Source: Eledone cirrhosa
Lineage: Eukaryota
DNA length: 64,000 bases
Assembly (NCBI GenBank): GCA_964016885.1
Contig: OZ024742.1
Span: 159,154,001 to 159,218,000 of the forward strand
Direction of reading: 5' to 3'
In this document: piece after piece, positions 33,087-55,815 of the stretch
Layout of the letters: every line of letters starts with the position of its first letter
Position numbering within the stretch: the stretch's first letter is position 1
Notes under the pieces: model-generated
The model's input: the letters and a program-made list of their open reading frames with translations, nothing else
Database searches by the model: none
Told to the model about the DNA's origin: nothing
Program-made: the position numbers and the translations under genes

Positions 33087-33216
33087 TGGGCTTCCACTGA
33101 TGATTTATAAACGCCCACCTAAATATATTCTTACATGAATGTATATTAGGCTTCTACATAAACTGGAAATATTCTCCGAATTTGTAGAAAACTTATAATG
33201 AAACAATTGTTTGGAA
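33087..33216 (+). ncRNA. Type I hammerhead with branched stem II and putative pseudoknot
   Basis: UUCCA-CUGAUGA-U UUAUAA [two hairpins] UUAUAA U-GAAA-CAAUUG-UU/UGGAA. Flank UGGGC (33087-33091) is complementary to GCCCA (33113-33117). Confidence 0.85.
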
Positions 33217-34249
33217 AGAGAGATATATTTTAACTTTAATTATATCTCATAAAATAATACAACTGGCTTTTCCACATAATACATATTGTTAGCACCCCAA
33301 ACACTTAAATTGGGTTTATATTAAAATATAACCTAATGTTTGTTGAGTGAGATGGTTACCAGTGAGAGATTACCATTAAACTATCTCTGTTATTGTACTA
33401 ATATTTATATATATATATATATATATATATATATATATATATAATTATATATATAATTATATATATATATATATATATATATATATATATATATATATAT
33501 ATATATATATATATATATATATATATATATATATATACATACATACATACATACATATATATATATACCCTGTCTGTTTCGTTCTTTGTATCTTTACCCT
33601 TTCTAGCAGTCTCTCTCTCTCTGTTAGCCTCTTCCTCACCTTTCACTCACTCATTCTCTGTCACTACCTCTCCTCCTCCCCTTTCTTCCCGTTTGACCTG
33701 TCCGTAATCCTTTTCTCGCGCGCACTTGGCCAAGCCGGTATGAATTTTTATTCTCTCTCTCTCGTCTGCGACTTCACAGAACTTATGTTTACCGAATTCG
33801 CAGACCAGACCCCTTCTTCCTCCCGTTAGACCTGTGCGAAATTCCTTCCTTGCTCACATTTCAACCAGGTTTGATGGTCTTTATTCTCTCGTTCACGATT
33901 CCACCGAATTTATATTCATAGAAATCTGGGACTTGTTTCTTTCTTCTTCATCACTTTCTGTTGCTTAAACCATTTTGTTTGTTTACCCTAGCGTCCCCTT
34001 TATTTACGTGTCCCAACGACTTTTTTTAGCTGTTGCTCGCACCAACCTGAGGTATATGGCCTTTAAAGCGACGAAATGCCTACGACGGTTGGAAGGCCAC
34101 TGATGAAGCACAAACTTTTTCATATGTAACCCATTTGCAACGCCGCAGTTCCATTATTATCATATATATATATATATATATATATATATATATATATATA
34201 TATATATATATATATATATATATATATATATATAAATCTACATACATAC

Positions 34250-34858
34250 ATGGTGGCTGCCAACTCATTTTCGAGTACGGTCACTACTTTATATCCATGT
34301 AGGAGAACTCCTACCGATGCACTGAACGAGTGTGAATTTTAGTCCAGCCAGCGACTTGAAAACTCTGGTACAAACACTACACTTGTGACAAATATTGACA
34401 CATAGTGCTGGGCCCATGGTACCATGTGACGACAAGTGCAGAGAGATCTCCAGATATAAAGCAATGCCTGTGCCGTGAAGCTTTTATAGTGAGCAAAGGC
34501 ACTGCACAAAGCCAGTCCCATTCTCTTAACCAAGATGATATTTACCAAAAAGAAGAACAAGTCAACATCATTGGATACCATCAGAGTTGCAGGTGTTATA
34601 TCAGAGTTTTCCTTCTCCTAGAATTCTGCCTTGACAAAGGCTAAGGGGGTCATCTCTCCCGGTGATTTGGGATGGCCATTGACTATTAAGAGCTCCTTTG
34701 CTCTTTGACAGGTTTTGTTTTTAGTCCTGCAGGATGTCCAAAGGCACCCTCCTCACCAAGAAACCTTGGTGGGGTTGCCAGTTTAGTCGCCAACGACCCG
34801 ACCATGAGACAGGTTGTACTGGGATACATGTTACCAGTAGCACCAACTGGTGACCTGA
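34250..34858. repeat. ~610-bp interspersed repeat, inverted copy at 46300-46910
   Basis: Near-identical pseudo-ORFs occur on opposite strands (34339/46578, 34405/46515, 34705/46240). Both copies are flanked by TA-rich microsatellite. Confidence 0.88.
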
Positions 34859-35075
34859 CATATATACATACATATATATTTAAATCTACATATATACATA
34901 CATTTACGTATGTATATAGCTATGCATTTATACATTTGTATATATATACATGCATTTATATTTAAGTGTGTAGGGTTATATATATATATATATATATAAA
35001 TGAGCGGAGCAAGCAATTATCAAACAATCTTTTAAATAAATTTAAAAAACGATTTAAATATTCACCTGTTCTATT

Positions 35076-35162
35076 GCTGTTACCGACGGTTTCACTAATC
35101 AAAAGATTGGAAATCCAGAGAATTTCCAATGGAAAGAATTAGATCTTCAGACAGCTATTTCC
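35076..35162 (-). ncRNA. Type I hammerhead with long stem II and putative pseudoknot
   Basis: GCUGU-CUGAAGA-U CUAAUU cuuucc AUUGGAAAUUC ucu GGAUUUCCAAU cuuuu GAUUAG U-GAAA-CC guc GG-UA/ACAGC. The 5' flank GGAAA can pair with UUUCC. It lies in a ~400-bp unit between microsatellite tracts. Confidence 0.88.
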
Positions 35163-52550: not shown

Positions 52551-53065
52551 ATGTATGTATGTTCTTCTGGTTTTATAATTTCACAAATTTTTTTCCCAAT
52601 AGCGGGAGAGTTGGTTTCTAACATAGACACAAGACTCTCTCATTGAAATTTACACATCAACTAGGTAGATTATGTATTCATGCATGCATGTGTAGATACG
52701 GATGTTATTGTATGTGTGGATGTGTATGTTTTGAGTTGTATGTGTGCATGTGTATATGCTTTGTATCTGTACATGTGTATATGCAGTTATTAGATGCAAA
52801 ATGTATGTATGTATGTTGTTCTAGTTTTATAATTTCACAAATTTTTTCCCAATAGAGAGAGAGTCGGTTTCTAACATAGATACAAGACTCTTTCATTGGA
52901 ATTTACACATCAACTAGGTAGATATGTATGCATGTCAGCATGCATGCATGTGTAGATATGGATGTTATTGTATGTGTGGATGTGTATGTTTTGAGTTGTA
53001 TGTGTGCATGTGTATATGCTTTGTATCTGTACATGTGTATATGCAGTTATTAGATGCAAAATGTT
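52551..53065. repeat. Tandem duplication, ~2 x 254 bp
   Basis: TTTTATAATTTCACAAATT...GCAGTTATTAGATGCAAAATG is repeated. Confidence 0.8.
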
Positions 53066-53439
53066 TGGGATGTTTTACATATTTTTACTGTTCCATTAAT
53101 GGATTGTACTTGTAATTTCCTAATTAGTTGTGTTTGTACTTGTAATTTCCTAACTAGTTATGTATGTATGTATGTATGTATGTTTTCTCTTTCTCTTAAT
53201 TTCGAGTATATTTTTTTGACCGGCCACCTTCCTGGTGGCAAGGTTGTAAAAGAAAAGAAATTGTCATCCCTTGAATCGCAAGAATGTTTTGCATATTTTG
53301 AAGGTGCCAGCATGTATGTATGTATGTATGTATGTATGTATGTATGTATGTATGTATGTATGTATGTATGTATGTATGTATATAACCCAGTAAAAAGAAT
53401 ATGTACAATAGTATCGGATTCGATAAAACGTGAGCAAAA

Positions 53440-54830
53440 TTTGCTTTAGATACCCATCAGGCATCTTTCATTTCTCTAAGGGATGTCTGTACCTGCTGTT
53501 TTCTATCCTTATAGGCTTTCTTTTTAGCTGTTGAGTTTCTGTCTCCATTCCAAAGCCTGTATAGGTTATGCATCTCGCTGATAACGGTTTGGCCATCTGA
53601 GTTGCTTTCATCAAACCAGTCGTGGTGTTTTCTCATAGGAAATTCTAAAAATTCTACGGTGGCTACATAAGAGGGAACTTTGAGCGCTTTCCAGTAAGCC
53701 TCAGTGTCCTTCGAAATCTGGCAGAGTAGAGGAATGAGTAAAGTTTTGCTTTCTATCAGTGGATCTCAAAGCACCCACAGCAACATGGGTGAGATATGTT
53801 GCTTTTGAAAATGCCGTGGTTTTTTGGGGAATATTAAATGAAACCTTGCTGCGCAGCGGTACATGATCCGAGAGATAGCAAGAAGAGTGAAAAGAGGGAG
53901 TGATTTGGGGATCTTTTAGGTCACACTTGTTTGTGATGACATAGTCAATCATGTACCAAACCTTGGATTTAGGGTGCATTCATGTTGTCTTATGGCTTGC
54001 AGGTTGTCGAAAAAAATTTATTTGTGATGCTAAGATAAAATTCCTTGCATCCCATTTGAGTTCATAGCTCTAACTCTATTAAACTCAAGGACGTCATGCC
54101 ATATTAGGTAATCATTTACAACTCTAGCATTGAAATTTCCCATTATGATGAGCTTGTTCTTGTATGGAACAGTGGAGACCATTGTGTGAAGCTGATCATA
54201 AAATGTTACGATATAATGCTCAGATGAATAAAGAGTTGGGACGTAACAACTCATTAGTGTAAGAAAGGTGTTGTTTGCTAGATCAAGAGAAAGAGTCGTG
54301 ATACGATCACTGACACCCTTCAGGAATGATGTTAGGTATCTAGCAATGTCGGATCTAATGATATAGCCAACATCAGATTGACGGTGGTCTTCTTCACCTT
54401 TCCTGGACGAGAAGACTGCGTACCCTTCTACTTCTTCCATTTGGGATGTGCCGGGGAGTTAAGTTTCACTTAAAGCACAGTTATCGATATAATGTCTATT
54501 GAGTGCATTGCAGGTGAGGCTGACATTCCTTCAAGATTTGAGCTGCCGTCCCGGACTGTCTTAATATTCCAGGATCCAAAAGTTGAATGCTTGGTTTTGT
54601 TTCGACCGCATATTTGGATAACGAGACAGACGCGGTACTGTCAAGTTAAAAGATTGAGCAAGCATTTGTTTAGGGCTCCTTTTACCACTCGTCACTGTGT
54701 ATGGAAAGCAGTGCTATGTCTCTAAAGACATGTATTGTTACCATCAGAGAATACGAACAGCATAAATTTTGAGCATGAACGGCCATCACCTGATAGTCGT
54801 CACTGTGTAAAGCTCCAGCTAAAGATTTCC
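53440..54830 (-). mobile_element. RTE/BovB-like LINE 5' part (APE endonuclease), decayed
   Basis: GSWNI, CYVPT, IIMGNFNARV, MHPKSK.WYMIDYV and SDH. Confidence 0.85.
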
Positions 54831-55036
54831 TGTAATACCCTTTATATGTCTGTAATACCCTTTATATTGCCTTAGCTCTCTCGCCATTGGATTTTGTGTT
54901 AAAGGTGGGATATCAAATAAACAACACTAGTAGATCAGTTGAACTACCACACAAACGAGTTGTTTATAGTGATGAAGGCTTCCTTTTTTATAAGTATTGT
55001 AGATATGTATACGTGTGTGGGGGTGTGAGTATATAT

Positions 55037-55815
55037 ATATATTACGTAACTGTCTTTATCCCATTGCAGAAACTAATTAGTTGGAGTGAAAATTTTAGTA
55101 AGTAAGTTAATTTTTTAAATTCTTTTAAAAATTTTCTTATTTTACGTCTTTCATATTATTGTTCTGCATCTTCCTGCATGGAACCACCTAGGTACTATGA
55201 CATAACTTATGTATTTGCTAGCATTAGCGTACATCTGTACGCATATGTTAGTAGATATACTAAATTCTCTATATTTATCTCCAAATTATTTATTTGTTGA
55301 GCAAACCTGCCAAAACCACTACTAATTTATTGGTGTGGTAGTAGGCTTCTGTCATCTTACCATCCCACTCCTACCGACTAGCCTCAGTGTCACGCGATTG
55401 ATTCTTTAGAATCTGCTATTTGACCAGAGACAGCGAGCTTTTCAGTGCATGGAATCCAGTCCCCGCTAGCTGTTCCATCTACCGAATTATTATTATTTTT
55501 ATATGAGTCCCCAGTGTCCGCGCATTGCCTGGAGACTTAGCTGAGAATAGACTCCCTGATGACGCAATGAATTCTCGACGGTTATATTACGTAACTGTCT
55601 TTATCCCATTGCAGAAACTAATTAGTTGGAGTGAAAATTTTAGTAAGTAAGTTAATTTTTTAAATTCTTTTTAAAATTTTCTTATTTTACGTCTTTCATA
55701 TTATTGTTCTGCATCCTCCTGCATGGAACCACCTAGGTACTATGACATAACTTATGTATTTGCTAGCATTAGCGTACATCTGTACGCATATGTTAGTAGA
55801 TATACTAAATTCTCT
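55037..55815 (+). repeat. Partial tandem pLTR/retrozyme unit, period 545
   Basis: 55037-55270 matches 55582-55815. An inverted family fragment lies at 58363-58447. Confidence 0.88.
55543..55632 (+). ncRNA. Type I hammerhead with long stem II and putative pseudoknot
   Basis: ACUCC-CUGAUGA-C GCAAUG aauucuc GACGGUUA..UAACUGUC uuuaucc CAUUGC A-GAAA-CUAAUUAG-UU/GGAGU. Flank GAGAAU is complementary to AUUCUC. Confidence 0.9.

Follow-up and report, generated by a model that had tools for sequence, protein, structure and literature searches.

Long-stem II hammerhead motifs with a predicted helix from the stem I flank to stem II, and a permuted hammerhead-like motif, in Eledone cirrhosa

Natural hammerhead ribozymes are cleaved faster when stem I is in contact with stem II. 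A Watson-Crick pseudoknot can supply this contact, as the available part of one paper reports from disruption and rescue by mutation (Perreault 2011, PMC3088659). This article describes four type I hammerhead motifs (A, B, C, and D) and one permuted, hammerhead-like motif in a stretch of 64,000 nucleotides from Eledone cirrhosa (assembly GCA_964016885.1, contig OZ024742.1, positions 159,154,001 to 159,218,000), here called the window. The host is an animal with a genome of 3.0 Gb. In each of the four motifs, a short segment beside stem I is complementary to a segment within an oversized stem II domain.

The pseudoknotted hammerheads, which include the human C10orf118 motif, likewise have a Watson-Crick helix of at least four pairs between stems I and II (PMC3088659). 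It occurs in about 40% of the published set and is needed for fast cleavage. There the helix joins the loop of one stem to the tail beside the other, and the accessible text says nothing of an oversized stem II that contains an internal loop or a junction. According to the same text, the analysis of stem lengths left out repetitive type I motifs.

Another close form is the HDV-like type III hammerhead of toad and termite (de la Pena 2021, PMC7936874). As far as the excerpted paper describes it, this form resembles the window motifs in having a 5-bp stem, an internal loop whose 5' strand forms the pseudoknot, and a capping hairpin. It is their mirror image, with the internal loop in helix I pairing with loop II, and its RNAs are circular.

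Hammerheads are also known from Penelope-like elements (PLEs). In the minimal type I motifs of PLEs the loop of stem II is small (the published descriptor stops at 10 nt), and no tertiary contact was recognised (Cervera and de la Pena 2014, PMC4209133). In the motifs described here, stem II is interrupted by an internal loop or a junction, is closed by capping hairpins, and takes part in a linking helix. Metazoan retrozymes without long terminal repeats (non-LTR retrozymes; PMC7229834; bioRxiv 10.64898/2026.07.22.740005) also resemble the repeats of the window. In the portions of these sources available, they consist of non-coding units in tandem, every unit with a single type I hammerhead, and have been proposed to be non-autonomous derivatives of PLEs. 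Their motifs are canonical or minimal and use non-Watson-Crick loop contacts; circular RNA was shown there, and the present analysis is one of DNA sequence.

Finally, type-SGC and type-CSG hammerheads have their strands in a non-circularly permuted order, and the accessible part of their description states that type-SGC requires a stem I-II helix for cleavage (Eckert 2023, PMC10085705). The permuted motif of the window shares with type-SGC the S-G-C order, the short linker that leads from stem I to stem II, and the helix between these stems. It differs in its copy number, which reaches thousands in one animal genome, and in its stem II, which opens after one pair into a four-way junction.

A survey of the literature, mostly by listings, found no long-stem II type I form with the present placement of the helix, nor any account of PLEs that carry permuted hammerheads; Hammann 2012, Arkhipova 2017, Lunse 2017, and the Perreault 2011 alignments lie outside its coverage and could describe the former. 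Pseudoknotted hammerheads and the mirror-image internal-loop form are already known. What may be new is the placement of the helix in a long-stem II type I motif.

The predicted linking helix of the type I motifs

The reading favoured here, with a probability of about 0.72, is that A, B, C, and D are type I motifs of non-coding repeats likely mobilised by PLEs, and that a predicted Watson-Crick helix of 4-8 bp ties the 5' flank of stem I to the strand that follows the 5' side of stem II, likely replacing the loop-loop contact. The positions of all features are collected in Table 1.

An earlier note on this DNA, made by inspection of the window, had claimed four hammerheads with intact CUGANGA and GAAA and an oversized stem II. 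The sequence check agrees. All four have these core strands and an NUH site, including C3-A9, G12-A14, A15.1-U16.1, and H17, with stems I-III in the C-G-S order. Pair 10.1-11.1 is a mismatch in three of them (U.U, U.U, and C.A). Stem I consists of 4 bp in B and of 5 bp in the others, and the stem II domains range from 50 to 96 nt. In B, the 95-nt domain is a 9-bp stem opening to two hairpins. The 96-nt domain of A is read as a stem with two hairpins (a three-way junction) by the folds of B and of the variant L152. The domains of C (50 nt) and D (51 nt) each consist of a mismatch (U.U in C, C.A in D) and 6 bp, an internal loop, and a capping hairpin. Stem III is palindromic in A, with 2 bp, and is a 10-nt palindrome in D.

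The note's complementary segments are all exact and in the places given there. They lie 5-7 nt from C3 and 8-9 nt from A9, in agreement with the common register that it proposed. The partner strand, on the stem II side, is unpaired in the folds of B, L152, C, and D.

In the proposed mechanism, the helix and stem II would form together as a pseudoknot. This would join stem I and stem II at their distal ends and hold the two side by side, which would permit fast cleavage at cellular Mg2+. The capping hairpin or hairpins would hold the partner strand in place as a single strand. In tandem transcripts, dimer formation may complete the short palindromic stem III; a palindrome permits the dimeric form proposed for PLE hammerheads (PMC4209133).

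The type I pattern is not frequent by chance. Across evenly spaced genome stretches that total 1.2 Mb, a scanner for it gives 97 matches; the same DNA reversed gives none. First-look searches of the genome give 1240 candidates for A, 2711 for B, 2155 for C, and 818 for D, from which 40 per family were scored. A helix of at least 5 bp is found in 36 of 40 distinct copies of A/B, 31 of 36 of C, 27 of 28 of D, and 4 of 4 of a further family, N, where the score is the best helix within fixed windows, so that a small number of rows are out of register. The pairing occurs in the majority sequences of the families, where the note would have it looked for. In C and D the adjacent part of stem II varies and the helix is kept. 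These motifs, like pseudoknotted hammerheads, have a conserved helix of at least four pairs between the peripheries of stems I and II. In family N (L331-L334) the helix reaches up to 8 bp (UGAAGAAU/AUUCUUCA), and its partner strand could also pair with the core.

One alternative is that the complementarity arose by chance and was carried along by the amplification of a few founders. The families were chosen after the pattern had been noticed, their copies share common ancestry, and the shuffle tests of single families are modest: with composition preserved, p is 0.094 for A, 0.084 for B, 0.047 for C, and 0.008 for D. A null made of 528 pairings across families gives lower values, the helix score being reached by 1.9% (A), 1.9% (B), 0.6% (C), and 0.9% (D) of them. 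In this null p is at most 0.04 for A, B, C, D, E1, E2, and M, and not for the other 17 of 24 representatives. Control windows far upstream and downstream score lower in all six representatives tested, which speaks against chance, as do the compensatory changes described next and those in the linking helix of the permuted family. Chance is considered very improbable.

Compensatory changes occur in family E, which lies outside the window and has the same architecture (2,501 pattern matches in the genome against 0 in the control). Of its 42 copies, 41 have G-C at pairs 1 and 3; at pair 2, 39 have A-U and 2 have G-U. Pair 4 is more variable, with C-G in 19, U-A in 17, G-C in 2, and U-G in 2. In a MAFFT alignment 88% of the cells are paired, compared with 19-56% in slid registers, and 28 cells are doubly changed against a shuffled mean of 10.9, a count reached by none of 500 shuffles. 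A tree built without the helix strands places the U-A/C-G split on a branch with 100/100 support. Along one lineage pair 5 passes through U-A, U.U, A-U, and G-C. The doubly changed cells thus represent few events on the tree: one deep switch between U-A and C-G, the G-C variant, and the stepwise path of pair 5.

Family C provides further examples. One copy has a double change (AGAAA/UUUCU), and in one subfamily an internal GGAAA of the capping hairpin is altered, with the loop UUUCC and the upstream GGAAA kept. Family K, a homologue of C (downstream z 13.6), has the helix GGGAG/UUCUC, with one double change and two wobbles. A model based on E and run over the window ranks C and D first (E-values 0.00075 and 0.0066), so that C, D, and E may share ancestry.

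The claim of a covarying pseudoknot in the earlier note therefore holds for the related family E and for C compared with K, and is not shown within A/B or D. Its three unrelated families need a similar correction. A and B, about 75% identical, do form one family; C and D may be distantly related through K. Its view that one register with different sequences points to a selected architecture is supported by the family majorities and by the covariation in E and C/K.

Several observations weigh against the favoured reading. No compensatory change of the helix is seen in A/B or D, whose copies are young (97-100% identical), so that their conservation is partly inheritance. Fourteen of the 42 copies of family E leave pair 5 unpaired, and the number of pairs with double changes is matched by 50 of 500 shuffles. 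Seven of 22 long-stem II matches in the 1.2-Mb sample fall outside the helix-bearing families. Among 331 loci, none of the PLE open reading frames (ORFs) with reverse transcriptase and GIY-YIG domains was seen to have a helix-bearing motif as its terminal repeat, two places (L087/L104 and L165) being possible exceptions. AU-rich versions of the helix are weak alone (about -3 kcal/mol), and nested folding of A favours the linking helix without stem II. The register of A/B, with 5 nt beside stem I and 9 beside stem II, is unbalanced, which may strain the geometry; the register is 7/8 in C and D and about 6/6 in E.

Such observations suggest a second alternative, in which the helix is a mutually exclusive fold, formed first during transcription, that delays or gates cleavage. 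It is most plausible for A/B, where the hammerhead is incomplete in the minimum-energy folds of A and L152, which contain instead the helix or an extension of it; the unbalanced register and the possible pairing of the family N partner strand with the core point the same way. A pseudoknot is, however, invisible to nested folding. In C, D, and E the helix abuts stems I and II without overlap, and the same register is needed for activity in type-SGC ribozymes. As a general account the exclusive fold is unlikely, and the pseudoknot remains the favoured reading, with A/B as a weak case for it on account of the register and the competing nested fold of A.

The helix marks a subtype of the long-stem II motifs. 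Helix-bearing families account for 15 of the 22 matches with a stem II of at least 40 nt among the 97 matches of the sample; with this share, and with representatives that fail the null, the helix cannot be a feature of all such motifs. The broader statement, that every long-stem II motif has the helix, was rejected, since G, J, O, F, P, Q, R, S, T, U, E3, K, and A3 have cross-family p values of at least 0.078. In family V only 3-4 helix pairs are found, and variants break them. Genome-wide, core spacings of 70-110 nt give 17,451 matches against 546 in the control, with several further families of very long stem II among the first 100 matches listed.

Motif searches with short stem II limits miss these hammerheads, as the earlier note expected. 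The descriptor of Cervera 2014 limits stem II to 7 bp with a 10-nt loop, and the spacer of Craig 2021 is 7-17 nt, both too small. An Rfam search of the window with E-values up to 1 matched none of A, B, C, and D. Standard descriptors and Rfam thus miss a large class, amounting to 15 of the 97 strict matches in 1.2 Mb.

A permuted motif with the same proposed brace

The permuted motif of the window, which the earlier note does not list, belongs to a family with 6,067 genome matches to a strict pattern and 0 in the control; 12 copies lie in the 1.2-Mb sample. A generic S-G-C scan of 2.02 Mb gives 11 matches against 0 in reversed DNA, and a relaxed scan 19 against 0. Rfam returned no match to the motif at E-values up to 10.

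In 23 aligned copies the six helices are 93% paired, compared with 25-44% in slid registers; as the structure was drawn from the same 23 sequences, this comparison favours it over slid controls. Double changes affect 18 of 33 pairs, a number reached by 0 of 500 shuffles, and they include 5 of 6 pairs in stem I and 5 of 6 in the linking helix. The core and stems of type-SGC are present, with stem I 95.7%, stem III 97.8%, and the linking helix 93.5% paired in the 23 sequences. A continuous stem II after CUGANGA is absent (37% paired over 5 columns). Only pair 10.1-11.1 holds, in 19 of 23 copies and with four pair types, and the remainder of stem II comes from upstream by way of the four-way junction. 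The linking helix adjoins stem I on its 5' side and comes right after the stem II strand, which is the register of the helix in A-D.

A third alternative is that selection acts through another step than the rate of cleavage, such as circle ligation, RNA stability, or recognition by a PLE protein. Both helix strands would, judging by their positions, remain in the 5' cleavage product. Published PLE hammerheads are slow in vitro (PMC4209133), and the accessible part of another study reports no cleavage in eight of nine Xenopus retrozyme dimers (bioRxiv 10.64898/2026.07.22.740005). The helix sequence, though, is free to differ among families, which argues against reading by a sequence-specific protein, and the position of the helix follows that of the ends of stem I and stem II in the C-G-S as well as the S-G-C order. 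This alternative is quite unlikely, and a brace for cleavage remains preferred.

The permuted element is also present in contigs of three sequencing runs from two organisms, a result about presence only. One metagenome match to the pattern lies inside an unrelated coding region and was judged to be chance.

Permuted forms may also occur in Naiad elements. These are PLEs described as being without canonical hammerheads, eight of them flagged with a "half core" (Craig 2021, PMC8557442). Inspection by eye of ten Naiad 3' ends in the accessible part of the supplement gives four clear permuted motifs, one possible, and five ends without one. The ends of Naiad_Obim and Naiad_Ovul show the same S-G-C layout, with helices that differ in sequence yet are complementary. 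Naiad_Hpol and the entry preceding it contain clean type-CSG hammerheads with linking helices of 13-15 bp, and the entry before Naiad_Adux contains the possible permuted motif. An exact 21-nt Naiad motif is absent from the Eledone cirrhosa genome with one mismatch allowed, and a CSG-order scan of the genome stretches examined gave no matches.

Taken together, these comparisons make it probable that animal PLEs have a wider hammerhead repertoire built on one stem I-II brace. Naiads would carry active permuted forms, type-CSG in nematodes and S-G-C with a branched stem II in octopus. In the present genome, thousands of S-G-C copies would stand beside tens of thousands of long-stem II type I motifs. 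The permuted hammerheads would then be the first with covariation support from genomes whose organism is known.

Repeat elements of the window

Each hammerhead belongs to a repeat unit. Same-strand spacings (about 990-1000 nt for A, 700 for B, 465 for C, and 545 for D) indicate one hammerhead per tandem unit. An example of a tandem array is found in family D, with more than 60 head-to-tail units of about 545 nt on the same contig (G000:C3:88369000-88406000, L100-L103). The sequencing runs listed as containing element D include no RNA run. Scans of whole units of A and D found no ATG-initiated ORF longer than 32 aa in A and 38 aa in D. One or two fixed points, next to (TA)n or similar repeats, mark where the copies terminate, and the 5' side is truncated or inverted. 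The copies show the marks of PLE-type mobilisation: a 3' end that is fixed, 5' truncation or inversion of varying extent, partial tandem repeats, and targets of (TA)n. Their non-coding units in tandem, with a single type I hammerhead per unit, are a mark of retrozymes.

PLE proteins match at 63 of the 331 loci. These matches and the neighbouring motifs on the same strand are separated by microsatellite, except at L087/L104 and L165. A link of the motifs to a coding PLE was considered and dropped, because at L091 a (TA)n tract lies between the PLE ORF and motif B. Fragments of several types of PLE-like ORF with reverse transcriptase and GIY-YIG domains occur at L091, L093, L094, L095, and L005 and are candidate donors in trans.

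Non-coding tandem units with PLE proteins apart from them fit the non-LTR retrozymes. The elements are therefore likely to be non-coding, retrozyme-type derivatives of PLEs, mobilised by PLEs in trans; the earlier note's "PLE/retrozyme" assignment stands for its second part and not for coding PLEs. Cleavage would free a unit-length RNA, which would circularise and be copied in trans by a PLE reverse transcriptase.

Table 1. Hammerhead motifs and their elements, in window positions
Feature	Position	Strand	Details
Hammerhead A, type I	33087..33216	+	C3 33097; predicted cut after 33211
A linking helix	UGGGC 33087-33091 / GCCCA 33113-33117	+	exact complement
Family A element copy	32857..33405	+	5'-truncated, between (TA)n tracts; full unit ~998 nt, non-coding
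Hammerhead B, homologue of A	48703..48835	-	C3 48825; predicted cut 48707
B linking helix	UGGGC 48835-48831 / GCCCA 48809-48805	-	exact complement
Family B element copy	48534..49189	-	unit ~700 nt
Hammerhead C	35076..35162	-	C3 35150; predicted cut 35081
C linking helix	GGAAA 35162-35158 / UUUCC 35135-35131	-	exact complement
Family C element copy	34998..35406	-	unit ~465 nt
Hammerhead D	55543..55632	+	C3 55556; predicted cut after 55627
D linking helix	GAGAAU 55543-55548 / AUUCUC 55571-55576	+	exact complement
Family D element copy	55042..55810	+	partial tandem; unit ~545 nt, non-coding
Non-circularly permuted S-G-C hammerhead-like motif	34010..34111	+	predicted cut after A34056
Permuted motif, helix IV	34010-34013/34108-34111	+	
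Permuted motif, hairpin	34014-34035	+	
Permuted motif, stem II arm	34037-34040/34068-34071	+	
Permuted motif, linking helix	34042-34047/34087-34092	+	
Permuted motif, stem III	34052-34055/34076-34079	+	
Permuted motif, stem I	34057-34062/34094-34099	+	
Permuted motif, core	GAAA 34073-34076; CUGAUGA 34100-34106	+	
Element with permuted motif	33568..34162	+	between (TA)n tracts; same-strand spacings elsewhere ~620-640 nt

The window contains other motifs and repeats. A tandem array of 312-nt units (28288-29835, + strand) has a small type I hammerhead in four units, with C3 at 28564, 28876, 29188, and 29500. Two weak Rfam Hammerhead_HH9 matches (55994-56071 and 56311-56388, - strand) lie 317 nt apart and score 31 bits, below the gathering score. 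Other type I cores or remnants, in other repeat families, are located at 57390, 49526, 47161, and 59055 (- strand) and at 45233, 45692, and 51196 (+ strand). A long, near-perfect inverted repeat at 43783-43917 resembles miniature inverted-repeat transposable elements, and microRNA models match it below their thresholds. A repeat similar to short interspersed elements occurs at 26333-26867, 35980, 42058, and 60835, and may be octopus-like.

Meaning for retroelement hammerheads

Judged by sequence comparison, the linking helix is best regarded as a real, selected RNA architecture and as a variant of a known ribozyme class. It would give retroelement hammerheads, whose low in-vitro activity was ascribed to unknown host factors, a concrete tertiary contact that can be mutated. 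The permuted motifs would place non-circular permutations of RNA in animal genomes at high copy number, and they offer a testable answer to the apparent absence of the PLE-typical ribozyme in Naiads.

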